Numbered from the stretch's first letter, positions 4,290 through 62,342 are shown. The stretch: DNA of 64,000 bases from an uncultured Clostridia bacterium (GCA_947573405.1 CANPFW010000002.1:1695-65694), one strand, 5' to 3'. Notes: generated from the letters alone by a model not told the origin. Program-made: numbers and translations.

Positions 4290-4330
4290 GAGAGATCATG
4301 CAAATATCTGCTTTTGACAATCCCTCAGCC
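4290..4330 (+). repeat. truncated copy of the mosaic intergenic repeat (spacer remnant plus right arm only)
   Basis: AGATCATGCAAATATCTGCTTTTG followed by ACAATCCCTCAG (4317-4328), compared with the family consensus AGATCCTGCAAAATGATAG....ACAATCCCTCAG. There is no left arm; it starts 12 nt after the pth stop. Confidence 0.45.
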
Positions 4331-4414
4331 AATTTGCAATCACTCCACGTCTGTTTTTAAACTGAAATTACACCTTTCATCTATAATGAACCAAAGAAAG
4401 GCATTATCATAACC

Positions 4415-7400
4415 ATGAACAATCAAACCTTACTGCTTTCGGCAATCCGCTCCTGCCGGGAATATACAGCGCTGTCGGATGCACTTGCCGTCTCCCGCCG
4501 CAGAGCGGTACGCCGCCCTGTCTGTGTCAACGGACTGTGCGAAGGAGCCCAGCCCCTGTTTCTTTCCGCACTGACCGGAGACGAAACTGCCGCCTGCCGC
4601 AGAGTGCTGCTGCTGTATTCCAGTGACCGTGCCGCCGCTGATGAAGCGATGCGCCTGTCAGAACAGGGAATCCCGGCATATCACTTCCCAGTGCGGGACT
4701 ATCAGTTTCACAATACGACAGCCTCCCGCGACTACGAGCGCGGGCGGCTTCTTGTGCTGTCTGCATTGCTTTTTTCTGAAACGCCTTTTGCTGTCTGCGC
4801 GACTGTGGAAGCAATCCTCCAAACCACAGTCCCGCCGGAAGATCTGATTCATCTCACCTATACAGTGGATCCCGAACGCCCGCTGGATACAGAACGGCTG
4901 GCAGAAATACTGGTGAACGGTGGTTATACCCGGGTGGAGCTGGTGGAAGGTCCCGGGCAATTCGCCATGCGCGGCGGTATTATCGACGTATATCCCCCTG
5001 CAGAAGCCCCTGTGCGTATCGAACTGTTCGGAGATGAAATTGACCGCATGGGCAATTTCGACCCTGCTACCCAACGGTTTACAGAAACGATCCGGGAACC
5101 GCTGCGCATTCCTCCTGCAGGCGAAATTCTGCCCAGCGCACAGAGCCGGGATCTGATCCGAGCTGCCTGTGAAAAGCAGTTGAAAAAGATACAAGGCACA
5201 GAAAACGCCCGGGCAGCGGATATTCTGCGGGCAGAGCTTGCAGCGCTGGACAACGGCGAAAATATCGGATTTGCGGACAAATACCTGCCCCTGATTTATC
5301 CTGAGGCGTCCTGCTTTTTAGACTATTATGACGGACTTGCAGTCCTGTGTGAGGCGTCCGCAGTACAACAGCAGGCACAGGCAGCAGAAATGCTCACTAT
5401 GCAGACCCTGGAAGAACTGATCGGTGCGGGAGAGCTGCACAAAGCGGTGCGGGGAACATACATACATTCTTGGGCACGTATGGAAAAAGCGCTGGAAGTG
5501 CTGCCAAGTGTGCTGGTCGATCCTTTTGCGCGCAGCCATGCCGGACTGTCCCCTGCCGCAGAATTTCATTTTGAAACCAGACATATTCCTGCTTATGCCG
5601 GAAATACGTCCTTGCTTTTAGAAGATCTGGAACAGTTTGCCCATGGGAAATATCGGACGGCGATTCTCTGCGCCAACGAGACGGAAGCCGGAAACATTGC
5701 TGATATGCTATCCGATGCAGGCTATACAGCCGCCGTCTGCAATGAAAATTTGGATTTCTACGGTGCGGACAGCGCCCGTCAGCCTGTAGCCCTTCTGTAC
5801 GGGGACGGGGGTGCAGGCTTTGAGCTTACAGGAGAATCGTTTGCTTTTCTGAATTATTCCGGGATACCGGGATCTGCCGCAGGCAGGCGCAAGCGGAAAA
5901 AGGCTGCGGCAAAGAAGAACCGGGAAGCCATCCTCTCTTACAGCGATCTTACCGAAGGAGATTATGTAGTCCATGAGGCATACGGCATCGGGCTGTTTGA
6001 AGGAATTGAAAATCTTACCGTAGACGGCATGTCCCGGGACTATGTAAAAATCAAATATGCCGGAACAGATCAATTGTTTCTGCCGGTAGATCAGTTGGAT
6101 TTGCTTTCCAAATATATCGGTGCCGCTGCCGAAGGAGGCGGGGTACGCCTGTCCAAAATGGGCGGATCCGACTGGAGCCGTGCGAAAAGCCGCGCCAGCG
6201 CCTCCGCCAAGGAAATGGCAAAGGAACTGATCGAACTGTATGCACGCCGTCGGCGTGCAAAAGGCATCGCCTTCCCGCCGGAGGACGATATGGGCAGGCA
6301 GTTTGCCGCTGCATTCCCCTATGAAGAAACGGACAGCCAGCTTACAGCCATTGCAGACGTAAACCGGGACATGGAAGCGGACTATCCTATGGATCGCATT
6401 GTATGTGGAGACGTTGGATATGGAAAAACCGAGGTTGCGCTGCGCGCCGCTTTTAAGGCTGTATCCGGAGGGTGTCAGGTAGCAATCCTCGTACCTACTA
6501 CAATATTAGCATATCAGCATTATCAGACAGCACTCAGCCGATTCCGCGGGTTCCCTGTTTCCATAGATATGCTGTCCCGGTTTCGGAGCAAAGCCCAGCA
6601 GACTGCGTCCCTACGCCGTCTGCGCCGGGGAGAAACCGATATTGTAATCGGAACCCACCGGCTGATTTCTGAGGACATCACATTCAAAAAACTAGGACTG
6701 GTTATCGTGGACGAGGAACAGCGCTTCGGCGTTGCCCAGAAAGAAAAGCTGAAAGAAGCTGCAATCGGCGCGGATATGCTGACGCTTACCGCTACACCGA
6801 TCCCCCGGACGCTGAACATGGCAATGGGCGGCATTCTGGATATGAGTGTGCTGGACGATGTGCCGGGGATGCGTTCCCCCGTGCAAACCTATGTAATGGA
6901 GCACGAGGACGGGATTTTATACGAGGCAATCCGGCGGGAGCTGCGCCGGGGCGGACAGGTATTTTATCTGAACAACAATGTGGAATATTTATACACCATT
7001 GCAGGCAAACTGGGGCGGGCTGTTCCGGAGGCACGCTGCGCCGTGGCCCACGGACGTATGGATCGGGACGAGCTGGAAGAAGTTTGGGAAGGACTTGTTG
7101 AAGGAGAAATTGACGTGCTGATCTGCACAACGATTATTGAAACAGGTGTAGATATTCCCAATGCAAACACGCTGATTATAGAAAACGCAGACCGGTTCGG
7201 GCTGTCCCAGCTTCATCAGATCCGCGGACGTGTCGGACGTTCCAACCGCCGGGCATACGCATATTTTACCTATCCGAAAATGAAGCAGCTTTCGGAAATC
7301 GCAGATAAGCGGCTTCAGGCGATCCGGGAATATGCAGCGTTCGGCGCAGGCTTCAAGATTGCGCTGCGGGATTTGGAAATCCGCGGCGCGGGGAATCTGT

Positions 7401-7960
7401 TGGGAGAGCAGCAGCACGGGCACATGGAAGCCGTAGGCTACGACATGTACATCAAGCTGCTGGAGGAAGCGGTTCTGGAGGAAAAGGGCGAAGAAAAGAA
7501 AGTGCGCGCGGAATGTGCAGTCAGTGTGCGGGCAGACGCATACCTGCCGAAAAGTTACATCCGGGATCAGGCACAGCGTATGGAAATGTACCGTAAGATT
7601 GCAAAAATCCAGTGTGAGGAAGATTTCTCCGATATGATTGACGAGCTGTGCGACCGGTTTGGCGATCCGCCGCGCAGTGCTATGATGCTATGCCGCATTG
7701 CCCTTTTGCGCGGGCTGGGCGTGCAGGCAGGAATGGAAAAAATTGAGGAACGGGACAGAGAACTGATGCTGTGTTCCAAAACGCCGGATCTCACAGCAGT
7801 GCAGCAGCTTTCCGGCAAATATCCGGGTGCGGTCCGGATGACCATCGGCGCTGTACCGGTAATCACTGTCAAGAAGCCCCGCGGGGTACAGACGGTAGAC
7901 TTCCTCTGCGATTTGTTAACGGAATATATACAGTTTCTTCCTACGCAGGCAAAGGAATGA
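4415..7960 (+). CDS. mfd: transcription-repair coupling factor
   Basis: 1181 aa. SF2 helicase motifs GDVGYGKTEVA and DEEQRFGV, RNAP-interaction region and TRCF C-terminal region. Confidence 0.97.
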   Translation: MNNQTLLLSAIRSCREYTALSDALAVSRRRAVRRPVCVNGLCEGAQPLFLSALTGDETAACRRVLLLYSSDRAAADEAMRLSEQGIPAYHFPVRDYQFHNTTASRDYERGRLLVLSALLFSETPFAVCATVEAILQTTVPPEDLIHLTYTVDPERPLDTERLAEILVNGGYTRVELVEGPGQFAMRGGIIDVYPPAEAPVRIELFGDEIDRMGNFDPATQRFTETIREPLRIPPAGEILPSAQSRDLIRAACEKQLKKIQGTENARAADILRAELAALDNGENIGFADKYLPLIYPEASCFLDYYDGLAVLCEASAVQQQAQAAEMLTMQTLEELIGAGELHKAVRGTYIHSWARMEKALEVLPSVLVDPFARSHAGLSPAAEFHFETRHIPAYAGNTSLLLEDLEQFAHGKYRTAILCANETEAGNIADMLSDAGYTAAVCNENLDFYGADSARQPVALLYGDGGAGFELTGESFAFLNYSGIPGSAAGRRKRKKAAAKKNREAILSYSDLTEGDYVVHEAYGIGLFEGIENLTVDGMSRDYVKIKYAGTDQLFLPVDQLDLLSKYIGAAAEGGGVRLSKMGGSDWSRAKSRASASAKEMAKELIELYARRRRAKGIAFPPEDDMGRQFAAAFPYEETDSQLTAIADVNRDMEADYPMDRIVCGDVGYGKTEVALRAAFKAVSGGCQVAILVPTTILAYQHYQTALSRFRGFPVSIDMLSRFRSKAQQTASLRRLRRGETDIVIGTHRLISEDITFKKLGLVIVDEEQRFGVAQKEKLKEAAIGADMLTLTATPIPRTLNMAMGGILDMSVLDDVPGMRSPVQTYVMEHEDGILYEAIRRELRRGGQVFYLNNNVEYLYTIAGKLGRAVPEARCAVAHGRMDRDELEEVWEGLVEGEIDVLICTTIIETGVDIPNANTLIIENADRFGLSQLHQIRGRVGRSNRRAYAYFTYPKMKQLSEIADKRLQAIREYAAFGAGFKIALRDLEIRGAGNLLGEQQHGHMEAVGYDMYIKLLEEAVLEEKGEEKKVRAECAVSVRADAYLPKSYIRDQAQRMEMYRKIAKIQCEEDFSDMIDELCDRFGDPPRSAMMLCRIALLRGLGVQAGMEKIEERDRELMLCSKTPDLTAVQQLSGKYPGAVRMTIGAVPVITVKKPRGVQTVDFLCDLLTEYIQFLPTQAKE

Positions 7961-8019
7961 GCCTGCCGGCATGGTAAAATACAGGATAGGGCAAACTTGT
8001 CCGCAGAAAGGATTTTGAA

Positions 8020-9132
8020 ATGAAGATAAAATACAGATCTGCCGCCGCACTGCTGGGACTGCTTCTTTTGCTGTCCGTCTGTCTGCAGGGCTGCGGGGGA
8101 GATTCCAGTGCAGCTGTACTGACGCTGGGGGATGTGACAATCAGTGAAAACGTGTATCATTTCTGGGCAAGCAGCTACAAGGGAGATTTTCTTTACAGAT
8201 ACGAGGATGTGAAAAACACCGAAGAATTCTGGAAAAGCGAACTGATTGACGGGATCAGCGCGGCAGAATATTTTGATACGGTGATACTGGAAAACATTCA
8301 GTACACGATGGTATGTATGCACTTGTTTGAGGAATACGGGCTGGTGATTTCCGCATCGGAGAAGCAGAGCATACAGGATCGGATTTCCGATTATCTCAAA
8401 GAATATGCCCAGGGGAACCGGAATCTGTTCAATCAAGTGCTGGGTGAATATGGCGTAAATGCGAAGCTGCTTGAAAAAATTTATATTGACGATGCAAAGG
8501 TCTCCAAGGTATATGAATATCTGTACGGAGAAGATGGACAAACGCCTTTGACTGCGGAACAGCTGGAAGCATATTATCAGGAAAATTACGTGCACTTTCA
8601 AATGATATTTATCAACAATAAGTATCGGAATAAAACGGACAGCAACGGAAAATATATCACCGATGACAGCGGGCTGGTTCTCACAGAAGAACTGGACGAG
8701 GATACGAAAGCTCAGCGGGATGCGGCAATACAAAAGGTGCAGGAAGGTCTTGCCGCCGGAGAAACGTTTGCAGACTTGTACGAAACGTATTCTGAACTCA
8801 AGGCATACGAAAACGGGTACTATTTCAGCACAGGAACTACCTACAATGACAAAATCTATTACGATCTGATTCAGAAGGCAAGGACCATGGAGCCGGAGGA
8901 AACAGCCACCGTCGAGGGCGACTACGGAACTTGTATTATACAAAAGCTGGAACTGAATGAGGGCGCCTGGGAGGATAAAGAAAACAGCGATTTCTTTGAC
9001 AGTTACAAGGATACGGTGGGAGATACCGTTTTCCGGGAATTTCTCCGGGAATATTTTGACGATATAACGGTGGATACAGAAGCAATTGCGGCATATTCCA
9101 TTGCGGAAGTTACGCCAAACTACACGTTTTGA
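8020..9132 (+). CDS. lipoprotein, PrsA/SurA-like foldase with a degenerate parvulin-like C-terminal half
   Basis: Lipobox LSVCLQGC. The position after mfd is typical for prsA-like genes in Firmicutes. The C-terminal half follows the parvulin layout (YVHFQMIFI ... GLAAGETFADLYETYSE ... GDYGTCIIQKLEL), but catalytic residues are not obvious. Confidence 0.5.
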   Translation: MKIKYRSAAALLGLLLLLSVCLQGCGGDSSAAVLTLGDVTISENVYHFWASSYKGDFLYRYEDVKNTEEFWKSELIDGISAAEYFDTVILENIQYTMVCMHLFEEYGLVISASEKQSIQDRISDYLKEYAQGNRNLFNQVLGEYGVNAKLLEKIYIDDAKVSKVYEYLYGEDGQTPLTAEQLEAYYQENYVHFQMIFINNKYRNKTDSNGKYITDDSGLVLTEELDEDTKAQRDAAIQKVQEGLAAGETFADLYETYSELKAYENGYYFSTGTTYNDKIYYDLIQKARTMEPEETATVEGDYGTCIIQKLELNEGAWEDKENSDFFDSYKDTVGDTVFREFLREYFDDITVDTEAIAAYSIAEVTPNYTF

Positions 9133-9170
9133 TAAAAACGGAAAGCTTCATTATACATGCAGCATAAATC

Positions 9171-9446
9171 CCCCCAGCAAAGGAAGGTGACTCGCCGCAG
9201 TTCCCACCAAACTTCATATGCCTCCCCCCCGCAAAGGGAGGTGGCGCGGCGCAAGCCGCGTCGGAGGGATTGTCCACGTATTACTTCCAATTTTGTTGAT
9301 CCTGCAAAATGACAGCAAAACAATCCCTCAGTCACAGCAGAGCTGTGACAGCTCCCTTTACACAAGGGAGCCTTTTTGTGTTTTATACTCCGCGACAGTT
9401 CCCCATGGAACCACGTAGTGGATCCTCGCATGGAAGCCTTTTTGTA
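9171..9446 (+). repeat. mosaic intergenic repeat, locus R1 (modules A-A-B-C-D-E-G)
   Basis: Arms GGAGGGATTGT 9263-9273 and ACAATCCCTC 9320-9329 (46-nt spacer). B hairpin CGCGGC-GCAA-GCCGCG. D hairpin GTCACAGC-AGA-GCTGTGAC. E module GCTCCCTTTACACAAGGGAGC+T5. G box CCACGTAGTGGATCCTCGCATGG. Confidence 0.9.
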
Positions 9447-9510
9447 TTTGTGCTCCTCTGATCTCTCCCCTTACGAAACCAAACAAAAAGAGGGGCATAT
9501 GCCCCTCTTT

Positions 9511-10455
9511 TTAATAAAACGTAGCCACTGCGGGATCCGGTTCTGCTGCCGGTTCAACCTTCTGGGCCAGCAGTACCGGCCCTTCCCCGGCATAAACCTT
9601 ATGATTCTTCACCTGAATCTCACCCGTCACCGTTACCCAATCGTAGCTTTTGCAGTCATCGCTTCTGCCCCATTTGCAGATCATCGCGCTGAACTGAATG
9701 TCCTCCGCACAGCAGGTCATCACATGCCGTCCGGCAAACATCCAGCCTGTTCCCAAGCTTTTTTCTTTTGCCACCATTGCTTTGAACTGTACTGTTTTAC
9801 CATGATACGCGGGCAGGTTCTCGCATAAATCCCGATAAAACAATGCATAATCCCTGTCCTCGATTACGATAACCGGTGCTTCCATATCATACGGCAGCGG
9901 ATCCTCGATATCATCACAGATTGTTTCCCCGTTGACATTTTCATATATAATCGCCGCCATACGGGAAAGCCCCCGCACCGCCTTGTGCAAGTCCATGTAG
10001 TCCGCGCCAACTGCCATACGGTTGAAAATAATCATATCCGCGCTTTGAATTTTATCAACCACCAAGCTGCGCATATTCTGATTGTACATAGAAAATGTAG
10101 TGGAATCAAAGAACAAAATCTGCTGACCAATAATCCAATGCTCCGGTGCAGCATTATATAGCGCAGACAACTGCCACATGCCGTTGTATTCTACAAGAAT
10201 TTTAGTTGCGTCGTGCTTTTTCTGCAATTTAATCAGTGATTCCGGTGAAAGCTGTTCCGCATCGGAGATTTCCTCTAAATATACATCCTGTGAAGCAAAC
10301 TCTGTAGGATCCAGTTCCACCTCCCCGGATTCGCAGAGCAGTACCAGAATCCGCTCTCCCTCGCAAAAACGCTTGTCCATAAGGGTTTCCTGTATAAATG
10401 TTGTTTTTCCCGATTCCAAAAACCCTGTCACCAGGTAAACAGGTGTATCTTGCAT
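9511..10455 (-). CDS. divergent G3E-family (CobW/HypB/UreG-like) P-loop GTPase fused to a C-terminal CC-x-x-D domain (DUF1980/TIGR03943-like)
   Basis: Walker A GFLESGKTTF. No CxCC motif. The C-terminal ~110 aa contain GRHVMTCCAEDIQF, which I recall as the R..(I/M)TCCA.D signature of DUF1980-type proteins. The domain call is from memory. Confidence 0.6.
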   Translation of the reverse strand: MQDTPVYLVTGFLESGKTTFIQETLMDKRFCEGERILVLLCESGEVELDPTEFASQDVYLEEISDAEQLSPESLIKLQKKHDATKILVEYNGMWQLSALYNAAPEHWIIGQQILFFDSTTFSMYNQNMRSLVVDKIQSADMIIFNRMAVGADYMDLHKAVRGLSRMAAIIYENVNGETICDDIEDPLPYDMEAPVIVIEDRDYALFYRDLCENLPAYHGKTVQFKAMVAKEKSLGTGWMFAGRHVMTCCAEDIQFSAMICKWGRSDDCKSYDWVTVTGEIQVKNHKVYAGEGPVLLAQKVEPAAEPDPAVATFY

Positions 10456-10483
10456 AATTTTGTGCCTTTCCTTTAGTTATATA

Positions 10484-11516
10484 TCAATCAAACAGGGCGT
10501 CCAGCGCATCTTCCTGCAATCCGGAGCCAATCACGCAAAGCCGTCCGGTAACAGCAGCCGTACCAATTCGGACATCCGCTTCTCCGGGGGTATAATCAAA
10601 GTGGAACCAGCCCTCATCCCCCGGCACAATCCCTTTCGCACGCAGTACCATACCGAACCGGCTTTCATTGGAAAGTTCATGCAAAATTTCTGTAAGTTTT
10701 TCACGGGTATAGTGCGCCGCCGTTTCTTTGCCCCAGCTTACATCCACAGGTACATTCTTCCCCATGATCGTAATGGTGGTGATGTTCATGTGCATCATGA
10801 TCGTGCCCGCAGCAGCATTCTTCACCGTGGTGATGATGTTCGTGCCCATTATGATCATGGTGGTGATGCTCGTGAGACGCTCCACAAACGGGACATGCCT
10901 CTTCTGCATCCAACAAAGACGCCTGGGGCTTTTCCACTGCCTCCAGAATTTGTTTGCCGGTAAGCTGTGTCCATGGAGTGGTAACAATCAGTGCATCCTG
11001 ATTTTTCTCTTTTAGGAGAGCAAGGCAGTCTCTGACTTTTCCCTCTGCCATATCATCCGTGTGACTGAGTACAATCGTTTTTGCATGGATGATCTGATCG
11101 TTGAAAAACTCACCGAAATTTTTCATATACATTTTGCACTTCTTCGCGTCTACAACAGTCGTACATCCGCTGAGCACCAGCCCTTGGTCGGAAACACCCT
11201 CCACGGCACGAATCACATCGGACAGCTTGCCCACCCCGGAGGGTTCAATCAGAATCCGATCCGGCGCATAATCCTTATATACCTGCATCAAAGCAGTGCT
11301 GAAATCTCCAACCAATGAACAACAGATACAGCCGGCATTCATTTCACGCACCTGTACCCCAGCTTCCTGCAAAAATCCGCCGTCGATACTGATATCGCCA
11401 AACTCGTTTTCTATGATCACCAGTTTTTCACCGGCATACGCTTCAGCAATCAATTTTTTAATAAGCGTAGTTTTGCCTGCGCCGAGGAATCCGGAAAAAA
11501 GATCAATTTTCGTCAT
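10484..11516 (-). pseudogene. COG0523/CobW-family metallochaperone GTPase, interrupted by a +1 frameshift after the His-rich tract
   Basis: Walker A GFLGAGKTTL, GCICCS and the His/Cys-rich tract HEHHHHDHNGHEHHHHGEECCCGHDHDAHEHHHHYDHGEE are in the frame of track ORF 10701..11588. The CobW_C-like end (VDVSWGKETAAHYTREKL...GRLCVIGSGL) is in the frame of track ORF 10484..10987. Removing one G of the GGGG run (C4 on + strand, 10760-10763) joins them: CAT GGG AAG AAT GTA CCT GTG GAT = HGKNVPVD. The length is 1033 nt = 3n+1. ATG at 11516 with GGAGG 7 nt upstream. Confidence 0.75.
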
Positions 11517-11730: not shown

Positions 11731-12020
11731 AAGCCCCCCTAGCAAAGGGGGGTGATCCGCCGTAGATCTACCAATTTTCACAAGCCTCCCTTGTGCTGGA
11801 GCCGCATAGCGGATCCTAGGGTGGTGACTCGCCGTAGGCGAGGCGGAGGGATTGTTAAGCAATGCTGCCGATTTATTGATCCTGTAAAATGATAGCATCA
11901 CAATCCCCCAGCCTCCGCTTCGCAGAGGCAGCCCCCTTTGCACAAGGGGGCCTTTTCATGTGCACGCTTACTTCGCGACAGCTCCCTATAGAATCACACA
12001 GTGGATCCTCACATGGGATT
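11731..12020 (+). repeat. mosaic intergenic repeat, locus R2 (A-A/G-B-C-D-E-G)
   Basis: Arms GGAGGGATTGT 11845-11855 and ACAATCCCC 11900-11908. B hairpin CTCGCC-GTA-GGCGAG. E variant GCCCCCTTTGCACAAGGGGGC. G boxes CCGCATAGCGGATCC (left) and CACACAGTGGATCCTCACATGG (right). Confidence 0.9.
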
Positions 12021-17665: not shown

Positions 17666-17768
17666 AACCGGATCCTTTCGTACGCAGTATCTGCGTCTAC
17701 TGCCCATAGGCAGTTCTTTTCTAATGTATCATTATATCCTACCCATGCCGGATTGTCAAGTGCGGGAA

Positions 17769-18065
17769 GGTTTGCACAGCAAAACTCAGAGGGATTGTGT
17801 GAGCAGTACTGCCGATTGGCAGATCATTCAAAATGATCGTTTAACAATCCCCACCCGCTGCGCGGGAGTTCCCTTTACTGGGGGAAACCCAAACCAAACC
17901 CAAGCCTCCCTTGTGTAAAGGGAGGTGGGTTTTGCACAGCAAAACCCGGAGGGATTGTCCGAGTAGTACTGCCTATTTTGGGATCCTGCAAAATGATCGT
18001 ATAACAATCCCTCAGTCACAGCAAAGCTGTGACAGCTCCCTTTACACAAGGGAGCCTTTTTGTTG
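17769..18065 (+). repeat. mosaic intergenic repeat, locus R3: two tandem cores (B-C-D-F then A-B-C-D-E)
   Basis: Core a: AGAGGGATTGT 17788-17798 / ACAATCCCC 17844-17852, with D = CCCGC-TGC-GCGGG. Core b: GGAGGGATTGT 17948-17958 / ACAATCCCTC 18004-18013, with B = GGGTTTTGC-ACA-GCAAAACCC and D = GTCACAGC-AAA-GCTGTGAC. Confidence 0.9.
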
Positions 18066-18151
18066 TTTGCGCCGGGAGAGTTATTCGTATTCGCCGACAG
18101 TTTTTCTGATTGAAGCTTGATTTTAAAAAAACGCTGCAAAGTCGCTCCCAT

Positions 18152-18180
18152 TTGACAAGTTCCTCAAACTCCTGTATAAT
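18152..18180 (+). promoter_or_regulatory. consensus sigma-A promoter for the 859-aa surface protein gene
   Basis: TTGACA (18152-18157), 17 nt, TATAAT (18175-18180), both perfect hexamers, 135 nt upstream of ATG 18315. Confidence 0.6.
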
Positions 18181-18314: not shown

Positions 18315-20894
18315 ATGAAAAAATCTGCAGTTCTCCTTGCATTTTTACTTATACTAACCAGCCTGATTCCTACCGCTTTTGCCGCGGCAGACCTGACGCA
18401 CTCACAAGAATATATTCCCGAGTCCTATACGCAGCTCGGGTGGATGGATTATGATCCCCTTACCATAGCGGCAGACGGCTCCTTTCTCCTGGAAGATACT
18501 GTAGTACAGTTCGGCTGCATCACCAAAATTGCACACATGAACCGTCCCGAGCCATACCCCGTCACCACGCATACATTTTCAGATGGAACACTGTATTACA
18601 ATCTGCATCTTTTCGTAAACGAACGGGATATGGACGATGTACCCTGTATGGTACTGTATGCCCGACTGACAGTGGAAAATCTGACCAGAGAAAGCGCCGC
18701 ATTCCCAGTTGTATCTGCACAGCTGACAACCTTGACGGACGTACCCGGAGAAGTCCCCGCAGGGGACAAAGCCGCCTGTGATTATGCGGTAATAATCCAT
18801 GTAAAAGACAATGACCTATCCGCAAGCGCAAGAGATAAAGAAGCATTTGGTTCCTTTGACGACAATATCACCGTAATGAAAGCATTCTGGGACAAGCAGC
18901 TTTCCGGCAGTTTCACGTTCACAGAAATGCCGGAGGAAGCCGAGTCCTATGCCATAGCTCTGCAGACAGAATATATAGATCTGCTTTGCGGCATTTCTAC
19001 CGATGATGCATATTCTCTTGCAGCGCCGCTGCAGAAGCTTCCCGCAGACACCTCCGCTCTATCCTGCTTTGACGCAGCACTCTATTATATGAAAACGGAA
19101 AATTCGGATTTTCTGGATTCCATCTGGGAAAATCTGCAAAAGCAATATACCCAGCTTTGTGATGACCTGGAAATATACATCTTCACCGCAGCAGAGCAGG
19201 AAGAAAAAGTGCAGTTACTTCCCGGAAGCAGCCCGGAAACTGCACTGGAGGAAAACCTGAATGCACTGATCGAACTGAAAGCATTCGCCTTTCTGTGCCG
19301 CGAAAAGGATCCTTCACTGGAGGACGTTGCTCTGACGGCTTACCAAAACCTGCTTTCCTCTGTTGAAACTGTCATGCGCAACACCGTTTCCTACTGCACC
19401 TCCCATTGGTCTGTCACAAATTTGTCCGGCAGTCTTAGTCAAGGCATCTTTTCTTTGTCTGCAAACAGCAGCGCTGCTGCTGCGGCAAACTGGTACAAAA
19501 GAGATTCCGTATTCAATGCTCCCGGCGGCGGGACCTATTTGAAACGCCTTGCAAGACAGCAGCTTCCCTATTTGGACGGAACTGAATTTGCCAATTCTTT
19601 TTCCTTTATAGATTCTATTGTATCTCAATCGGAGGACGGTACAATTATCCTCGGTCATGGTCTTCCCGGCGCTTGGCTGTATTCAGACTCCACCCTGTCT
19701 TTCGAAAACTATCCCCTATCCGGCGGCGGCACATTGAGTTGTACCATTACAGGAAAAGAAAATGAACTTCGCATTAAGCTTTCCCCCTCTGCACCGACGG
19801 CTGCCTCTCTGGAACTTCCTGTATTTTTAAACAACATCGAATATGCCTCCTGCGGATTTGATTCAGAAAACGGGATTGTCAGCGTCCCTGCCGGCGTTAC
19901 GGAAATTACCGTGCGCTTGAAAAACGATATTGAGACAATCACCCAGGCACATCAGAATGCGCACGAATTGGAAGCCGCAATTGCTGCTTTTGAGGAAATG
20001 CACCTTGCAGAATACACAAAATATTCTGTGTCGCTGTTCGCGCCTGCACTGGAAAACGCCAAAACAGCGCGAACAGGTCCTACATCCGAAATGCATAAAG
20101 CTGCAGCAGATCTGCAAAAAGCAGCCGCGAAGCTCTCACGGACGCAATCCGCTTACACACTGTCACTATATCAGGACGGCACTGTATCTGCAGGGAATTT
20201 GGAAGCAGATGAAATTTTGCAGACATTCACAAGTAAAAAAGCAGGCACTTTATCTGAAGTATTTATAAAAGGTGCCTATTCTGAAAGCGTAACTGCCGTC
20301 ATATACAGTCTGCAAAAGGATGGTATTTCCCCGGGAGATCTCTTGGGAGAGGCAAAGGGAGAAGTCACCGGCACAGGCATTCTATTTTCGTTTTCCGTCG
20401 AACTGGAAGCTGACACAGGGTATGTGCTGTCTGTATTTTCCGAAACAAGCTCTGTTACCTTACCGGTATATCCTATAACGCAGGACGCACCGGTTTTGTA
20501 TGCCAAAACAGGGAATGACACCGCAGCATATGATCTCACCTGTATCGGTGCAGCGCTGCAAATTACCCAGGCAAATATGGAAGATTTAGATGTCTTTTTA
20601 GAAAAATGCATGTCTGCTGATGTTTCTTCTTACACCAAGGAATCCCGCAACCGCCTTGAAAAAGAAATCAAAGCAGCAAAGGAGCTTTTGTGTACCCAAT
20701 CCGTTTCGGAGGATGAATACAAAACCGTATATACCAATTTGAAAGATGCATATGCAGCGCTTGCTACTTATCCGTCAGATGCCCCGGTAGAAAAAACGCC
20801 CGCTGCATTATATGTTGTGCTGGGTATTGCCGCCCTCTTGCTGATCGCAGGCGGTATCGGCGCTGTCGCATCCTACAAAAAGCGGGAATGGTAA
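18315..20894 (+). CDS. secreted, C-terminally membrane-anchored surface protein of unknown function with two FIVAR-like helical modules
   Basis: Signal peptide MKKSAVLLAFLLILTSLIPTAFA. C-terminal TM plus KKREW tail. Two segments of the form L..A......YT..S...L..A...A..L (around aa 560-610 and 760-815), as in FIVAR modules of surface glycan-active proteins. No sortase motif. Confidence 0.7.
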   Translation: MKKSAVLLAFLLILTSLIPTAFAAADLTHSQEYIPESYTQLGWMDYDPLTIAADGSFLLEDTVVQFGCITKIAHMNRPEPYPVTTHTFSDGTLYYNLHLFVNERDMDDVPCMVLYARLTVENLTRESAAFPVVSAQLTTLTDVPGEVPAGDKAACDYAVIIHVKDNDLSASARDKEAFGSFDDNITVMKAFWDKQLSGSFTFTEMPEEAESYAIALQTEYIDLLCGISTDDAYSLAAPLQKLPADTSALSCFDAALYYMKTENSDFLDSIWENLQKQYTQLCDDLEIYIFTAAEQEEKVQLLPGSSPETALEENLNALIELKAFAFLCREKDPSLEDVALTAYQNLLSSVETVMRNTVSYCTSHWSVTNLSGSLSQGIFSLSANSSAAAAANWYKRDSVFNAPGGGTYLKRLARQQLPYLDGTEFANSFSFIDSIVSQSEDGTIILGHGLPGAWLYSDSTLSFENYPLSGGGTLSCTITGKENELRIKLSPSAPTAASLELPVFLNNIEYASCGFDSENGIVSVPAGVTEITVRLKNDIETITQAHQNAHELEAAIAAFEEMHLAEYTKYSVSLFAPALENAKTARTGPTSEMHKAAADLQKAAAKLSRTQSAYTLSLYQDGTVSAGNLEADEILQTFTSKKAGTLSEVFIKGAYSESVTAVIYSLQKDGISPGDLLGEAKGEVTGTGILFSFSVELEADTGYVLSVFSETSSVTLPVYPITQDAPVLYAKTGNDTAAYDLTCIGAALQITQANMEDLDVFLEKCMSADVSSYTKESRNRLEKEIKAAKELLCTQSVSEDEYKTVYTNLKDAYAALATYPSDAPVEKTPAALYVVLGIAALLLIAGGIGAVASYKKREW

Positions 20895-20897
20895 TAT

Positions 20898-20927
20898 AAA
20901 AGACCTCTCCTTAAAGGAGAGGTCTTT
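20898..20927. terminator. bidirectional Rho-independent terminator
   Basis: Perfect 30-nt palindrome AAAAGACCTCTCCTT|AAGGAGAGGTCTTTT, 3 nt after the stop at 20892-20894. Confidence 0.8.
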
Positions 20928-20970
20928 TATTCAATTAGGAAAGCTACCAGCGAGATATAAAGCTTATAAA

Positions 20971-21101
20971 GGTCCTCCCAGCAAAGGGAGAATCACGAAG
21001 TATCCAGCTTAAGAAGGCCCCCTTGTGCGGTGGTTCGAAAACGAACCACTGGGGCATCCCGCGTTAGCGGGTGAGGGATTGTCTTGCTATCATTTTGCAG
21101 G
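20971..21101 (-). repeat. mosaic intergenic repeat, locus R4 (inverted orientation; one arm only)
   Basis: GAGGGATTGT at 21073-21082 followed by ..ATCATTTTGCAGG (reverse complement of CCTGCAAAATGAT). Carries the rare GTGGTTCG-AAAA-CGAACCAC insertion also present in R5. No second arm before the apbE stop. Confidence 0.85.
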
Positions 21102-21127
21102 AACTTCATATCGACTGCCCTTTCAGA

Positions 21128-22183
21128 TTATTCCTCTATCATAATAGAAGCAAAACCGTCCGTATAATATAAATTGCCCTCTGCGTCAATCCAGGCAGCC
21201 TCCACATCTGCAATGCTGTCAACCAACGCTTTACCGCCCTCATATGTCATATTAAACACCGCAGTGGAAAGCGCATCTGCCATGCCTGCATCCCTGCAGA
21301 CAATGGATACGGAAACAAAACGGTTTTCCGGATACAGTGTGTCCGGATGAATGATATGATGATACCGCTCTCCGTCTACCATATAATACCGCTGATAGGA
21401 ACCGCTGGTCACCAGCGCCAGATCTGTCAGTGCAACCCGGCAGATAGATGCATCCTGCGCGCTCAGATCCGGATTTTGAATGCCCGCAGTCCAGGGAGTT
21501 CCGTCTCCTTTTGTTCCGATAGTGCGCACATTTCCTCCAATACTGAATGCCAGATGATCCCAGCCCATCTCTTCTGCCGCCAAAGCGATTTTTTCCGTAG
21601 CATATCCTTTTGCAATGGAACCGACGTCCAACTGCATTTTCGAATCAGATAAATACACTGTATGCTCCGCCCGATCTATAATAATCCCAGATATGTCCAT
21701 ATGCTGTGCCGCATCCTCCAATTCCTCACGGCTTGGCAAAGCGGCACGCTCTGGGCTCTCCGCACCAGCTTCTCTGTACGTATGCCAGATAGAGAGCACA
21801 CTCCCCATTGCCGCGTTTGTGAATCCATCTGTGACCCGGTACATTTCTATGCAATATTCCAGCAAATCCAAAATCCGTTCGTCAACGGATACCGGGCGCA
21901 CACCGGCATTATCGTTGATTGTTTTCAGATTGTTTATCCCATCGTAATCATGGTAAATATCATAAAGCTGATGATATTCCTCCAAAAGCTGCAGCAGCTT
22001 GTCTGTTTTGGCGTCAAACGCCTCTTTGGATGTATCAAATCCGGTAATCACCGCCACCGTATCGAATAAATCGAAAGAGGAACGGGAATAACGGTTCAAG
22101 TGGGTATTACTATCGCTGCCGCAGCCCGGTAAAACAGACAGAATCATTATCAGAGAGATCAGGAAAAAAGGATATTTTTTCAT
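21128..22183 (-). CDS. apbE: FAD:protein FMN transferase (ApbE family), lipoprotein
   Basis: Start at MKKYPFF (22183); the track ORF extends to 22276. Lipobox LSVLPGC. ApbE blocks DVGSIAKGYA and YHHIIHPDT. Confidence 0.9.
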   Translation of the reverse strand: MKKYPFFLISLIMILSVLPGCGSDSNTHLNRYSRSSFDLFDTVAVITGFDTSKEAFDAKTDKLLQLLEEYHQLYDIYHDYDGINNLKTINDNAGVRPVSVDERILDLLEYCIEMYRVTDGFTNAAMGSVLSIWHTYREAGAESPERAALPSREELEDAAQHMDISGIIIDRAEHTVYLSDSKMQLDVGSIAKGYATEKIALAAEEMGWDHLAFSIGGNVRTIGTKGDGTPWTAGIQNPDLSAQDASICRVALTDLALVTSGSYQRYYMVDGERYHHIIHPDTLYPENRFVSVSIVCRDAGMADALSTAVFNMTYEGGKALVDSIADVEAAWIDAEGNLYYTDGFASIMIEE

Positions 22184-22263
22184 ATGTGCAGTATGCCTTT
22201 CCCGGCTTTTGATTTTCTTTTTTGTGTAGGCAGGTGGTGCGAAAGCACCGTTAAACTTTATAA

Positions 22264-22496
22264 ACCTCTCCAGCAAAAGGGAGGTGGGCTTTGCGCATCA
22301 AAGCTTGGAGGAATTGTCAAGCCAAACTGCCGATTTGCAGATCCTGCAAAATGATAGCATGTGCATACAATCCCTCACCCGCTTCGCGGGATGCCCCAGT
22401 GGTTCGTTTTCGAACCACCGCACAAGGGGGCCTTTTAATGTGGGTGCCGCGCGGAAATTTCCTATGGAGCCACGTAGTGGATCCTCACATGGAGGA
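22264..22496 (+). repeat. mosaic intergenic repeat, locus R5 (A-B-C-D-insertion-E-G)
   Basis: Arms GGAGGAATTGT 22307-22317 and ACAATCCCTC 22367-22376 (49-nt spacer). B = GCTTTG-CGCAT-CAAAGC. D = CCCGC-TTC-GCGGG. Extra hairpin GTGGTTCG-TTTT-CGAACCAC. G box CCACGTAGTGGATCCTCACATGG. Confidence 0.9.
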
Positions 22497-22565
22497 CGTT
22501 TGATCAGCGCACGCCTTTTCACAGATACAAATGCAGGGATCCTGCTTTGCAGGATCCCTTTTCTA

Positions 22566-26103: not shown

Positions 26104-26340
26104 AAGCCTCCCCTGTGCGAGGGGAGAAATCGCTGCAGTTCCACTAAACTTAAGCCTCCTTTGTGCAAAAGGAGGTGGATTGCCGCAGGCGAGACGGAGG
26201 AATTGTATAAGCTACATTACCGATTTGAAGATCCTGCAAAATGATAGCCGGAACAATCCCTCCGTCACAGCAAAGCTGTGACAGCTCCCTTTACTGGGGG
26301 GAGCCTTTTTATATGGGTGCTCCACGAGAGCTCTATGCCA
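26104..26340 (+). repeat. mosaic intergenic repeat, locus R6 (A-A-B-C-D-E/F)
   Basis: Arms GGAGGAATTGT 26196-26206 and ACAATCCCTC 26253-26262. D = GTCACAGC-AAA-GCTGTGAC. Confidence 0.9.
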
Positions 26341-27568: not shown

Positions 27569-27580
27569 TCTGCACAAACA

Positions 27581-28070: not shown

Positions 28071-28093
28071 AGTCTTTTTGTTGTGCTTTTTCC

Positions 28094-34479: not shown

Positions 34480-34496
34480 GCTTTATCTGCCTTTAT

Positions 34497-34830: not shown

Positions 34831-34841
34831 GACTTTTTCGT

Positions 34842-38511: not shown

Positions 38512-38552
38512 AGAGCTATCTGAATTCTACAGGAATATCAGTTTGTTTGCAG

Positions 38553-41632: not shown

Positions 41633-41647
41633 GAAACTGAGCCAAAC

Positions 41648-41804
41648 AAAAAAGGCTCCCTTGTGCAAAGGGAGCTGTCGCGGTAGCGACTGAGGGATTG
41701 TCTATCTATCATTTTATATAATCTTCAAATTGATAGTCTGACTTAACAATCCCTCCGTCATGCCTATGGCATGCCACCTCCCTTTACACAAGGGAGGCTT
41801 TTTG
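41648..41804 (-). repeat. mosaic intergenic repeat, locus R10 (only complete core in inverted orientation)
   Basis: On the + strand: AAAAAAGGCTCCCTTGTGCAAAGGGAGC (E reversed), GAGGGATTGT 41692-41701, ACAATCCCTCC 41746-41756, then CCACCTCCCTTTACACAAGGGAGGCTTTTTG (A reversed). As placed, both ends present hairpin+T-run terminators toward the convergent lysA and prmA genes. Confidence 0.9.
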
Positions 41805-41821
41805 TTTGTGCTATTCTTTCC

Positions 41822-48805: not shown

Positions 48806-48996
48806 AAAAAGGCTCCCCATTAAAGGAAGCCTTTTTATAATCCAAGTCTCCCCCAGTAAAGGGAGGTGGGCTTTGCGCAGCAAAGCTCGGAGGGATTGTT
48901 TGCATAGACTGCCAATTTGAAGAATATCCGAAATGATCGAAGGACAATCCCTCAGTCGCTTCGCGACAGCTCCCTTTGCACAAGGGAGCCTTTTTC
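48806..48996 (+). repeat. mosaic intergenic repeat, locus R11 (E-like, A-B-C-D-E)
   Basis: Arms GGAGGGATTGT 48889-48899 and ACAATCCCTC 48944-48953. The B and D hairpins are identical to R9 (GCTTTGC-GCA-GCAAAGC; GTCGC-TTC-GCGAC). Confidence 0.9.
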
Positions 48997-49022
48997 TTTT
49001 TCGTCTGTACTATTTTTAACCT

Positions 49023-51721: not shown

Positions 51722-51910
51722 TTCATTTCCGCCTTTCCTGTTTGATCCGTACCGTAGTATTTGTCCGAAACAAATATGAATATGCAATGTTTTTATCAAG
51801 CTGATACCATTATACAACAGCCACCAATTTATGGCAAGAGCAAATCCGGTAGGATATAGTAGATTTTTCGAGTTAGCCCAACAGTAAAGCGCCTCTAAAC
51901 TAAACGTTCT

Positions 51911-51964
51911 CTCGGCAAAGGGAGGTGAATCGCCGCATAGCGGATCCTCACATGGGAGCCTTTT
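51911..51964 (+). repeat. mosaic intergenic repeat, locus R12 (fragment: half A plus G box)
   Basis: CAAAGGGAGGTG followed by CCGCATAGCGGATCCTCACATGGGAGCC. No C core. Confidence 0.75.
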
Positions 51965-52004
51965 GAATGGATGTTGCGTCGGCAGTTCCCTTACTCAATA
52001 TAGT

Positions 52005-57258: not shown

Positions 57259-57330
57259 ATTGATCTTCCTTTCTGCTATTTTACTTTATTTATTTATATG
57301 ATTGATTTATAAGAGCTTAGCACCTACTCA

Positions 57331-57558
57331 AGCCCCCCCTTGTGTAAAGGGGGGTGGCATGCCGTAGGCATGTCGGAGGGATTGTTTCACTATGCTATCA
57401 ATTTGCAGATATTGACAAACGATAACTTTACAATCCCTCCGTCTCCGCTTCGCGGAGCCAGCTCCCTTTGCACAAGGGAGCCTTTTTATTTGTGCGAGGT
57501 TGCGCGTCACCTTCCCTTGCTGGGGCTTGAATCGGTGTAATGGATCCGCACATAGGGG
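57331..57558 (+). repeat. mosaic intergenic repeat, locus R13 (A-B-C-D-E-F-G)
   Basis: Arms GGAGGGATTGT 57375-57385 and ACAATCCCTC 57430-57439. B = GGCATGCC-GTA-GGCATGTC. D = CTCCGC-TTC-GCGGAG. Confidence 0.9.
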
Positions 57559-57578
57559 TTTCAGGCTGATAAAGCTTC

Positions 57579-58821: not shown

Positions 58822-58935
58822 GTGTCACCCTCCTCACATTGATTTTGTTTATTTTAACACAAATGTGCAAATCCGTCAATGGGAATGCACATATTTTTGT
58901 GAAAATTAACATGCTATGTGTGAATTCAAACCAAC

Positions 58936-59027
58936 AAAAAGCCTCCCTTGTGAGAAGCCGCTGCGTGGCTCCATATGGGACTTCCGCGTAGCAACAATAA
59001 AAAAGGCTCCCTTTACACAAGGGAGCC
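58936..59027 (-). repeat. mosaic intergenic repeat, locus R14 (fragment; E and G-like modules inverted)
   Basis: AAAAAGCCTCCCTTGTG (half A), GTGGCTCCATATGGGA (G-like, inverted) and AAAAAAGGCTCCCTTTACACAAGGGAGCC. The last, read on the minus strand, is a hairpin plus T6 terminator 68 nt after the DMT gene stop. Confidence 0.7.
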
Positions 59028-59094
59028 TGATGAAGTTAGGTAGGAACTTATGCCAAGCAAACACCCTGTGAAGCCTCAGCAGACACCGTTTTTA

Positions 59095-62057: not shown

Positions 62058-62145
62058 TATGTGGTCAGTTTACCACATTCCGCGGTATAAAGTCAAGATT
62101 TGTCCAATTCTTTGTTGGGGCGCACAGAAATTTGCAGGATATAAG

Positions 62146-62342
62146 AAGGCTCCCTTGTGTAAAAGGGGGGGTGGCGCGGCGCAGCCGCGACGGGGGGATT
62201 GTTGCGCTATACTGCCGATTTATAAAAATCTAAAATGATCGTATTACAATCCCTCACCCGCTCCGCGGGAGCTCCCTTTGCTGGGGGGAGCCTAATGAAG
62301 TTTATGCTTCTCGTGGGAGCCCCCTTTACCGGGAGAACTTTT
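62146..62342 (+). repeat. mosaic intergenic repeat, locus R15 (A-B-C-D-F-F)
   Basis: Arms GGGGGGATTGT 62192-62202 and ACAATCCCTC 62246-62255 (43-nt spacer). B = CGCGGC-GCA-GCCGCG. D = CCCGC-TCC-GCGGG. Confidence 0.9.

Follow-up and report, generated by a model that had tools for sequence, protein, structure and literature searches.

The window analyzed here is a 64-kb stretch of DNA from an uncultured Clostridia bacterium, in which most of the longer intergenic gaps contain a hairpin-rich repeat (Table 1). The initial annotation had listed sixteen such loci, put their extent at about 3.5 kb or 5% of the window, and placed none of them inside a credible CDS. All sixteen carry the repeat family, they total 3,495 nt (5.5% of the window), and no listed locus overlaps a credible gene. 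A degenerate seventeenth locus was added at ~430-525. The repeat is indeed widespread, but its description as present at almost every operon boundary was too broad: 17 of the 23 intergenic gaps of at least 60 nt are occupied, including all five convergent gaps, three of the five divergent gaps, and nine tandem gaps. The locus at 41648 lies on the minus strand, which corrects the earlier listing. As first stated, the window yielded no transposase or integrase domain, either in a domain scan covering about two thirds of the mapped ORFs or among precomputed Pfam calls on orthologous contigs, through which most of the other ORFs were identified.

The repeat unit is a two-fold symmetric palindrome of ~145-205 nt with five hairpins. 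The seven modules originally proposed (A to G) capture its modular build but can be reduced to two hairpin types and one long stem. Module E, listed as a separate module, is the reverse complement of module A, and the element is therefore two-fold symmetric with terminal inverted repeats, a symmetry that reaches into the flanks (CACCAAAC.. / ..GTTTGGTG). Nor is module F independent, as it consists of the T-N-C loop of hairpin D, the 3’ arm of that hairpin, and E with its tail, tandemly repeated. On the left side lie mirror-image satellites made of A and of the 5’ arm of B up to and including the triloop. Module G is an A/E-type hairpin whose loop contains a second hairpin, of the G-N-A type. 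Both F and G derive from the unit, F as tandem copies of its outer part and G as hairpins nested in hairpins.

Each unit contains two half-sites of ~62 nt, opposed across a spacer of 17-58 nt. Reading inward, a half-site is composed of an invariant 8-bp hairpin, a variable G-N-A hairpin, and the sequence C(G/T)GAGGGATTGT. The invariant sequence of the outer hairpin, with its 8-bp stem, is CCTCCCTT-GTGYA-AAGGGAGG, or AAAG-CCTCCCTT-GTGYA-AAGGGAGG-TGG with its edges. The C(G/T)GAGGGATTGT segment pairs with its partner in the opposite half-site to form the C stem, which is invariant and leaves one conserved G.A mismatch, kept in 130 of 144 cores. The spacer is conserved within a genus only; across genera it has no content in common and can be as short as 17 nt.

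The second hairpin of each half-site has a short stem that is free to vary yet always paired, and its tip is a G-N-A triloop. Among 71 copies, 57 distinct sequences of hairpin B and 52 of hairpin D were found. At least five pairs are formed in 83% of B and 92% of D hairpins, compared to 34% and 15% in shuffled sequences. This is to be read with care because template-switch ‘correction’ can yield covariation without selection, and covariation is therefore no proof that the hairpins are used. The triloops of B are GCA, GTA, or GAA, with GTAG, GCAG, or GAAG located in the loop and not at the foot of the stem, and those of D are the complements TAC, TTC, and TGC. Each half-site thus presents one G-N-A hairpin on each strand. 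DNA mini-hairpins of the d(GCGNAGC) type, reportedly described by Hirao and colleagues, have a G-N-A triloop closed by a C:G pair. Hairpins B and opposite-strand D end likewise in C-GNA-G (GCGCAGC, GCGTAGC, CGAAG), although d(GCGNAGC) is a structural motif and not a genetic element. These hairpin ends suggest that the folded form of the DNA may matter.

With up to one mismatch allowed, GGAGGGATTGT is matched 27 times in the window against an expectation of 1.18, and 27 matches were reached in none of 100 shuffles. A covariance model trained on 13 window copies returned 12 full-length copies in the window, with scores of 116-183 bits (E 7e-30 to 4e-48), and also recovered truncated copies at 21003-21174, 58924-59040, 27572-27648, and 51888-51972. 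A thirteenth core, at 17788-17854, has the C stem without the A hairpin; with it, the 13 complete C cores once counted by hand are all accounted for. Matches to the patterns for the outer hairpin and for module G were confined to listed loci, apart from two weak matches inside genes. Eleven or twelve of the 13 window copies lie on the strand with negative GC skew. A replication-strand bias was nevertheless rejected: other loci had no consistent relation to skew, and skew over 2-8 kb mostly mirrors gene strand.

Table 1. Repeat loci in the window, with coordinates from its first nucleotide and covariance-model scores.
Position	Strand	Composition	Score (bits)	Context and remarks
430-525		degenerate locus: reversed G-type nested hairpin, B-like hairpin, decayed C stem (GGAAGGACTGT..ACAGTCC)	15.8	weak model match at 424-583
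4290-4330	+	fragment: part of spacer and C-stem 3’ arm (ACAATCCCTCAG)		pth-mfd gap
9171-9446	+	left satellite 9171-9206; full five-hairpin unit 9207-9385; G-type nested hairpin 9392-9435	157	between convergent genes; separate plain terminator adjoins at 9484-9513
11731-12020	+	left satellite; full unit 11767-11965 with G-N-A hairpin nested in hairpin A loop; G-type hairpin 11975-12018	151	L010 orthologue of this copy 91% identical
17750-18069	+	two tandem units, 17750-17895 (without hairpin A) and 17887-18069	166.8	flanked by perfect divergent sigma-70-type promoter matches, 17759-17731 (-) and 18152-18180 (+)
20971-21174	-	truncated unit: outer hairpins, nested hairpin, one C-stem arm and part of spacer	53.5	model tail past ~21128 enters ApbE 3’ end; repeat sequence proper stops at ~21120
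22251-22496	+	full unit 22251-22445 with hairpin nested in E loop; G-type hairpin 22451-22494	115.7	plain terminator nearby at 22535-22559, orthologous to one in element-free contig L201
26097-26340	+	left satellite; full unit 26137-26318	157.4	divergent genes on either side
27572-28070	+	largest cluster: outer hairpins and G-type hairpin 27581-27745; full unit 27746-27925; two right satellites 27928-28010; further nested hairpin	175.7	
34490-34832	+	left satellite; full unit 34525-34698; three right satellites; G-type hairpin 34789-34832	178.1	one satellite fewer in strains L106 and L108
38031-38277	+	left satellite; full unit 38067-38239; one right satellite	167.9	between recA and the promoter of the lysine riboswitch/dapA operon
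41641-41815	-	single full unit	183	occupies entire lysA-prmA convergent gap; outer-hairpin loop (41658-41672) flipped in half of strain contigs
48806-49003	+	outer hairpin; full unit 48829-49003	160.7	between convergent genes
51888-51972	+	core-less fragment: decayed A hairpin fused to nested G-N-A hairpin (G type)	13.2	
57316-57558	+	full unit 57316-57495; decayed right modules	165.4	
58924-59040		core-less outer-hairpin pair: reversed G type and E type	23.3	
62135-62342	+	full unit 62135-62305; one right satellite	147.7	no T-run past E (CCTAATGAAG)

As DNA, the two strands have folds of similar strength (z = -6.0 and -5.2). A structured RNA, either a multi-copy small RNA or a 3’-UTR stabilizer or terminator module acting post-transcriptionally, would also fold strongly, and the covarying B and D stems and the enrichment of copies downstream of genes are consistent with one. 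A T-run follows the outer hairpin in ~40-48% of exits, which score as terminators, and folding with RNA parameters slightly favors the top strand (51 copies versus 19, mean -2.3 kcal/mol). However, the same features are present on both strands, with G.U pairs balanced at 188 versus 176. No conserved promoter is present, and orientation is independent of the neighboring genes (18 sense versus 11 antisense). T-runs are not more common where termination would help, ordinary terminators adjoin elements, and the repeat is absent from most relatives and matches no Rfam family. The equal folding of the two strands and the locus that lies between divergent promoter matches, and so outside any transcription unit, make an RNA gene unlikely; we consider a function as RNA quite improbable.

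At least 48 other species-representative assemblies, from the Oscillospiraceae, Acutalibacteraceae, and Aristaeellaceae and with G+C contents of 36% to 63%, share the architecture of the unit, and their A, C, and E are nearly identical. This refutes a local segmental duplication as the origin of the window copies. In these other genomes, 26 gene contexts are convergent, 29 tandem, and 5 divergent. The distribution is patchy. Among distant LysA-homolog loci (58-68% identity, ~1 Mb), only one of 79 had even a weak match, and the element is present in L116, the sole near relative in that scan (98% identity). No element was found in a 15.8-kb syntenic contig of a related lineage (L201), where orthologous gaps measure 22-204 nt compared to 136-525 nt in the window. 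A species with ~90% identity carries an additional copy at a position that is a 40-nt gap in the window, and another species has two units at a site with one in the window. Copies are also found in phage late operons, and phage L214 carries ~540 nt of elements upstream of the major head gene, where phages L213 and L215 have 35-60 nt. The set of occupied sites varies between related species and between related phages. An apparent insertion in L110, with a run of N and duplicated flanks, was dismissed as a scaffolding artefact. A repeat that lies between genes, is common to so many species and some phages, and is absent from close relatives behaves like a small mobile element.

Ten strain contigs with 99.4% identity showed no unit gained or lost, which suggests that movement is slow or has stopped in the species of the window. 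Between strains and sister species, copies are remodeled by loop flips, changes in satellite copy number, a swapped D hairpin, and nested hairpins.

The elements might instead be DNA sites used by the host, whether binding sites for nucleoid or recombination proteins or small invertible switches, which would multiply by recombination and gene conversion and not by transposition. The two-fold symmetry resembles that of a dimer-binding site and the half-site sequence is extremely conserved across families; the near-identity of A, C, and E could be due to a host function instead of recognition by a transposase. The spacer is inverted relative to its flanks in 14 of 51 scorable copies across species, but all ten strain contigs have it in the same orientation, and its lack of conserved content across genera also counts against a switch or binding site. 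Four block junctions relative to L201, three from aligned blocks and one (20971-21101) by inference, all fall at element loci, although this coincidence is weak because so many of the gaps are occupied anyway. Copies also land in phage late operons, and most related genomes lack the element, so hosts in general do not require it. Host-used sites are, in our judgment, very improbable.

We favor, with a probability of roughly 0.55, the reading that one interspersed, non-autonomous mobile DNA repeat of the REPIN, BIME, or BOX kind gave rise to the loci as its copies, fragments, and local outgrowths. The data show the family itself, its anatomy, conservation, and patchy distribution, the filled and empty sites, and the lack of a transposase nearby; we infer mobility that is current or recent, folded DNA as the recognized form, and the nature of the enzyme. 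An enzyme encoded elsewhere would recognize the half-sites, most likely in DNA folded as a single strand or cruciform, and the same enzyme would copy or move the unit into gene-free DNA. Selection would afterwards leave copies mainly downstream of genes. Once inserted, copies are passed down vertically over long periods. Template switching and slippage driven by the hairpins reshape them by flipping loops, swapping whole hairpins, placing hairpins inside loops, and duplicating the outer part in tandem. No protein family recurred beside the element when 592 ORFs from ~0.67 Mb of element-bearing loci were clustered. The empty and filled pairs examined (L010/window, L201/window, and phages) are too diverged or are truncated at contig ends, and neither a target-site duplication nor a precise point of insertion could be defined from them.

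A mobile repeat of this size might be a classical MITE, that is, an internally deleted insertion sequence with terminal inverted repeats of ~60 nt, moved by a DDE transposase whose gene would lie in a full-length copy, either on a phage or at another place in the genome. The long inverted termini and short non-conserved center agree with this origin. The combination of patchy distribution and ends that are near-identical across families is expected for a horizontally spread autonomous parent, and the phage genomes that carry copies might ferry it between hosts. However, 81 aligned flank pairs, in which the exact ends are not fixed, showed no direct repeats at the element ends, and ~0.7 Mb of element-bearing loci contained no full-length parent IS and no recurring neighboring gene family. 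A search of the element-bearing loci for core halves 0.1-6 kb apart yielded only chance matches within genes in L016; LysA loci free of the element contained three more pairs of C-stem halves. A DDE enzyme that acts on duplex DNA would also leave unexplained the strict pairing of the variable stems, the G-N-A loops on both strands, and the conserved mismatch. We consider a MITE of this kind improbable.

Another possible route to dispersal is a REPIN-type system, in which a RAYT-type Y1 (HUH) tyrosine transposase, encoded by a single-copy gene, would bind the single-stranded hairpins, cut near the G-N-A(G) loops, and disperse the doublet. The inverted doublet of hairpin half-sites with a spacer is found in REPINs, as is long vertical inheritance, and the satellite breakpoints coincide exactly with the B and D triloops. 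RAYT-like genes were identified in two element-bearing genomes (L018 at 7471-7974; L087 at 2968-3429 and 6616-6822), and none in ~1 Mb of element-free relatives. These genes match NCBIfam REP_Tyr_transpos with 69-76 bits (E 1e-19 to 1e-21), which falls short of the 80-bit family cut-off. They are packed tightly among housekeeping genes, and the element does not flank the RAYT-like genes of L018, L087, or L198-L200; at the homolog loci L199 and L200 the element is absent within 20 kb. No RAYT-like gene was found in the window. The RAYT-like family is very large (at least 7,966 hits) and far broader than the element. The RAYT-like genes identified here are accompanied by GTAG-tagged palindromes of their own; these are repeated at other sites in the same genomes, differ in sequence from the element, and look like the true substrate of these genes. 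Clostridia Group 1 RAYTs and Y1 subclasses 2.1 and 2.3 have been reported without REP partners (PMC5581495, PMC6006769). A RAYT driver was down-weighted, and we regard it as unlikely.

The preferred reading of a non-autonomous mobile repeat can be set beside known systems. The initial description of a modular, hairpin-rich intergenic repeat recalling BOX/RUP, REP/BIME, or Correia elements is supported. Like REPINs and BIMEs, the repeat forms high-copy, extragenic, clustered inverted hairpin doublets with a spacer, has lineage-specific sequence variants and long vertical persistence, and is enriched downstream of genes. However, its half-site is a two-hairpin structure of ~62 nt and not the single 20-40 nt palindrome of REP, it has G-N-A(G) in the loop with no 5’ GTAG/CGTC tag outside the stem, no flanking RAYT gene was found, and its hosts are Clostridia and not Proteobacteria. 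Its density is also higher, at ~5% of the DNA compared to roughly 1% or less for REPIN/BIME. The BOX element of Streptococcus pneumoniae is similarly modular, with a variable number of one module and complementary end modules, and is strongly folded and intergenic with no transposase known. In BOX the repeated module (boxB) is internal, whereas here it is outer and mirror-image, and BOX is limited to pneumococcus and close relatives, whereas the Clostridia repeat spans at least three families. We know of no sequence relation to BOX, and the architecture sets the repeat apart from boxA-boxB(n)-boxC. Correia elements (Neisseria), RUP, and other bacterial MITEs are likewise intergenic, 100-200 nt long with inverted termini, can provide terminator-like hairpins, and vary in presence between relatives. 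Their termini of 20-30 nt are tied to a known IS family and to TA or other target duplications, whereas no duplication or parent IS is seen here and the termini contain conserved hairpins.

Two further candidates were rejected. IS200/IS605-derived palindromic elements (PATEs) are asymmetric, with subterminal hairpins on the same strand, whereas the Clostridia repeat is two-fold symmetric. A PATE also has a fixed tetra- or pentanucleotide at its left junction, whereas here the left flanks are conserved within a genome only, and tblastn with approximate query sequences returned no IS200-type TnpA. An integron attC array does not fit either, as copies are separated by housekeeping genes that lie on both strands, no integrase was found in the window, and the R’’/R’ cores are absent.

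The initial annotation did not recognize the sequences as a described family, and the searches agree. Rfam 15 gave no match on the repeats at gathering scores or with E up to 1, and collections of plasmid and phage records gave no match to the element. Its 17-18-mers occur in no searchable paper, and the 10-11-mer matches listed belong to unrelated papers. Literature searched by topic contained nothing on such repeats in Clostridia, and 200 of the 408 supplementary files of a human-microbiome RNA-motif paper held no match. The palindromic repeat of gut Clostridia is apparently undescribed.

A bolder version of the mobile-repeat reading is possible, though we hold it only tentatively. The repeat may represent a new class of hairpin-recognized mobile DNA of gut Clostridia with composite half-sites, moving as folded single-stranded DNA through an enzyme without a known repeat family, and frequent enough to shape intergenic DNA, rearrangements, and the fragmentation of MAGs. 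The composite half-site of such a class would combine a hairpin of invariant sequence, a mini-hairpin with a G-N-A loop, and a long stem with a mismatch. If this is true, hundreds of copies per genome, by extrapolation, would be present across Oscillospirales and their phages.

Small interspersed repeats have received much study in Proteobacteria, pneumococci, and Neisseria, whereas hardly any has been devoted to those of the uncultured Oscillospirales, the dominant group in animal guts. One element-flanked gene was seen in contigs of at most 1.5 kb only, and many contigs terminate inside the element; a repeat making up ~5% of the DNA explains the break-up of short-read assemblies of these species. 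The repeat is a possible marker for strain typing and phage-host matching, and it offers a defined substrate for finding a new hairpin-recognizing recombinase or transposase. With its loop flips, nested hairpins, and mirror-image tandem growth, the family is also a natural experiment in palindrome evolution.

The hairpin-rich repeats of the window are one real family. Allowing no more than one mismatch, the window contains 27 occurrences of GGAGGGATTGT, where 1.18 would be expected, and a repeat finder placed the loci of the initial annotation in shared families. A covariance model built from the 13 copies of alignment A1 returned 12 full-length units in the window (116–183 bits) and some truncated ones; together with the unit at 17788-17854, which lacks hairpin A, these make up the 13 complete C cores previously counted by hand. 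The earlier estimate of about 3.5 kb, or about 5 percent of the window, also agrees with the summed loci (3,495 nt, 5.5%). All matches to the outer-hairpin and nested-hairpin patterns fell within the listed loci except two weak ones in genes, and a decayed 17th locus lies outside that list (Table).

Each unit comprises, in order, hairpin A (GCCTCCCTT-GTGYA-AAGGGAGG-TGG), hairpin B, the 5' arm of the C stem (CGGAGGGATTGT), a spacer, the 3' arm of the C stem (ACAATCCCTCAGTC), hairpin D and hairpin E (ACAGCTCCCTT-TRCAC-AAGGGAGCC). Since A and E are reverse complements of each other, the element consists of two inverted half-sites of ~62 nt. A, C and E are nearly invariant in sequence; B and D have variable stems, free in sequence yet still paired. 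Among 71 copies there are 57 distinct B and 52 distinct D sequences, and at least five pairs form in 83% (B) and 92% (D) of copies, compared with 34% and 15% of shuffles. In the window copies alone, double changes occur at 12 of the 36 predicted pairs. Most B hairpins have a GCA, GTA or GAA loop closed by a C:G pair, and D hairpins have the complementary loops TAC, TTC or TGC, so that one G-N-A mini-hairpin is present per half-site on each strand. The d(C-GNA-G) motif is an unusually stable DNA hairpin turn. The sole fixed asymmetry is a mismatch adjoining the C stem (CGGAGGG..CCCTCAG, G.A on one strand), which is retained in 130 of 144 cores; A and E are set apart by a matching pair of differences. 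The spacer measures 41–58 nt in most copies and only 17 nt in one lineage, and its conservation is confined to the window's genus. Folded as DNA, both strands score far better than shuffles (z = -6.0 and -5.2), and in copies whose A is the weaker variant, pairing between A and E produces a cloverleaf with three arms.

The remaining modules are built from the same parts. Module F consists of head-to-tail repeats of part of D (its T-N-C loop and 3' arm) followed by E and its tail. Left satellites are the mirror image: A and the 5' arm of B, up to and including the triloop, precede the element's left terminus (CACCAAAC..). In module G, a G-N-A hairpin is nested in the loop of an A/E-type hairpin; this 19-21 nt insert is also found in hairpin A (11790-11830) and in the copy of unit 41641-41815 from the sister species. 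Two outer-hairpin variants, TTGTGCAAA and the weaker CCCAGCAAA, occur as mirror forms on the two sides.

The window is ordinary chromosome (G+C 49.9%), with genes including pth, mfd, ispH-S1, mnmG, recX-recA, prmA, secG, dnaJ-dnaK-grpE-hrcA, tldD/pmbA and a 2-oxoacid dehydrogenase operon. Overlap of the repeats with credible genes was zero, and no transposase or integrase domain was found in the window, as the initial annotation had stated. The element occupies 17 of the 23 gaps of at least 60 nt (five of five convergent, three of five divergent and nine tandem). Several other features were observed in the window (Table). A lysine riboswitch (Rfam RF00168, 74.4 bits) controls dapA-dapB-lysA; a TTGACA/TACAAT promoter lies just 5' of it, with a repeat cluster immediately upstream of the promoter. 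Short in-frame ATGGTGGTGATG-like repeats in the 5' part of a minus-strand CobW-family gene, which probably code for a His-rich stretch that binds metal, have no relation to the hairpin family. An 859-aa ORF without a Pfam match contains a weak AdoCbl-II riboswitch-like match (27.3 bits, gathering score 36.5) that is probably due to chance.

Such structured repeats could act as RNA. Under RNA parameters the top strand has a slight advantage in stability, and some copies, such as 41641-41815, probably serve as the sole terminator for both neighbours. However, the features are the same on both strands, with balanced G.U pairs (188 vs 176). The double unit at 17750-18069 is flanked by two perfect divergent promoter matches and therefore lies outside both transcription units. 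Orientation in other genomes does not follow the neighbouring genes (18 sense, 11 antisense), T-runs follow the exit hairpin in 38-48% of cases regardless of context, and several elements have ordinary terminators alongside. Together, these observations argue against a primary role as an RNA gene or cis-acting RNA. Placement between convergent genes is enriched (26 of 60 copies in other genomes), which is the pattern that tolerated insertions of a selfish element would produce. A role as a host DNA site is a further alternative. In the window (9207-62305), 11-12 of 13 cores share one orientation (binomial p ~0.003), on a strand with a GC skew of -0.096, opposite most genes; in other genomes no consistent orientation rule was seen.

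An exact-pattern scan with one genome per species found at least 105 stretches in at least 48 different assemblies. The matches listed were all in gut or rumen MAGs, with assembly names including Oscillospiraceae, Acutalibacteraceae, Aristaeellaceae, Faecousia and Vescimonas, and the covariance model found the whole five-hairpin unit in matched assemblies of 36% to 63% G+C. The element is far from universal. Among 80 loci with LysA homologs (~1 Mb), full elements were present only in L116, from the one near relative (LysA identity 98%); of the 79 more distant loci (58-68% identity), L154 alone gave even a weak match. L201, a syntenic 15.8-kb contig of a related lineage (66-78% nucleotide identity), has no element, and its gaps of 22-204 nt contain plain terminators, compared with 136-525 nt for the orthologous gaps of the window. 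Gene blocks are transposed and inverted between the two, and all four inferred junctions lie in element-holding gaps (Table). This apparent coincidence with rearrangement is suggestive only, given that 17 of 23 gaps hold elements in any case. The P0121 gene (26504-27568) has elements on both flanks, and its 64 database sequences all come from contigs of 1,546 nt or less. Many MAG contigs also end within an element, and the repeat is therefore among the main causes of broken assemblies in these species.

No gain or loss of a unit was seen among ten strain contigs at ~99.4% identity, which differ in satellite number. The 5-nt outer-hairpin loop at 41658-41672 reads GTGCA in the window and four strain contigs and is flipped to its reverse complement, TGCAC, in five others. 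The flip does not follow the satellite-number marker, and a further five hairpins of this type are fixed in all strains covering them. Species ~90% identical share most element sites with the window, the orthologous units being 82-97% and the flanking genes about 91% identical. In one such species, an operon contains an additional unit at the position of a 40-nt gap in the window. A second species carries two units, with many more satellites, at a site where the window has one; at another site, its D hairpin is swapped and its spacer has lost 17 nt. We read these sequence comparisons as suggesting slow gain and loss of units with rapid local remodelling.

Collections of plasmid and phage records gave no match. 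The element is present on two IMG/VR contigs, one of them (L196) being a phage that encodes a major head protein. Its relatives have elements at differing places; in the lineage with major head protein phrog_1357 these are intergenic and include a site within the head-gene operon. Just upstream of the head gene, phage contig L214 has ~540 nt of elements, compared with only 35-60 nt in L213 and L215. L214 also carries a diverged subfamily that keeps the five-hairpin layout but has another central stem (GGGGGTGCCGT..CCACACCCCC).

Coordinates of the window features, phage copies and in-gene inverted repeats
Feature	Sequence	Position	Remark
17th locus	window	about 430-525	decayed
Lysine riboswitch	window	38357-38526 (+)	
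In-frame repeats	window	10755-10874 (+)	
AdoCbl-II-like match	window	19720-19797 (-)	
Block junction	window	299-553	read from aligned blocks
Block junction	window	9132-9511	read from aligned blocks
Block junction	window	20894-21128	inferred
Block junction	window	27568-28094	read from aligned blocks
Element or subfamily	L196/L206	233-422, 1030-1181	phage
Element or subfamily	L207	5004-5204	phage
Element or subfamily	L212	7782-8002	phage
Element or subfamily	L214	1912-3492, 7785-7966	phage
Inverted repeat arms	L198	10117-10144 / 10285-10312	RAYT-like gene
Inverted repeat arms	L199	10114-10141 / 10282-10309	RAYT-like gene
Inverted repeat arms	L200	10118-10144 / 10297-10323	RAYT-like gene
Inverted repeat arms	L018	about 7594 / 7787	RAYT-like gene
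Inverted repeat arms	L087	3051-3075 / 3216-3240	RAYT-like gene
RAYT-gene palindrome	L198	1305-1325	intergenic
RAYT-gene palindrome	L033	40-80	inside mutL-like ORF

Mobilization by a REP-associated tyrosine transposase (RAYT) was considered, and tblastn with approximate Y1 transposase sequences found RAYT-like genes in two element-bearing genomes. These score 69-76 bits against NCBIfam REP_Tyr_transpos (cut-off 80) and give weak matches to Pfam Y1_Tnp. This lead did not stand up, on four grounds: the family is very large (at least 7,966 matches), the genes are wedged among housekeeping genes without flanking elements, homolog loci may be entirely element-free, and the genes contain GTAG-tagged palindromes of their own that are found again at other places in those genomes. 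REP partners are reported to be lacking for Group 1 RAYTs of Clostridia and for Y1 subclasses 2.1 and 2.3 (PMC5581495, PMC6006769); RAYT-like genes with long flanking inverted repeats have been described, not for Clostridia (PMC3733652). As a separate observation, the palindromes form a perfect 25-28 nt inverted repeat inside the reading frame of Oscillospiraceae RAYT-like Y1 genes, with 140-152 nt between the arms, which in L018 lie on either side of the HUH motif of the protein sequence. L198, L199 and L200 have identical arms, and their proteins are 78% (L198) and about 60% (L199/L200) identical to that of L018. The arms might represent an internal REP pair, an RNA structure or a switch turned on and off by inversion.

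A classical MITE moved by a DDE transposase is another alternative; no full-length parent of the element was seen, and no recurring gene family was found next to it. REPINs and BIMEs are closest to the element in behavior and BOX in modularity, but the defining tests place it in none of these groups. The family is a small interspersed palindromic DNA repeat and, as the initial annotation had supposed, is undescribed as far as could be checked. With a probability that we put at roughly 0.55, the element would be non-autonomous mobile DNA, recognized in its hairpin-folded form by a putative enzyme encoded elsewhere.
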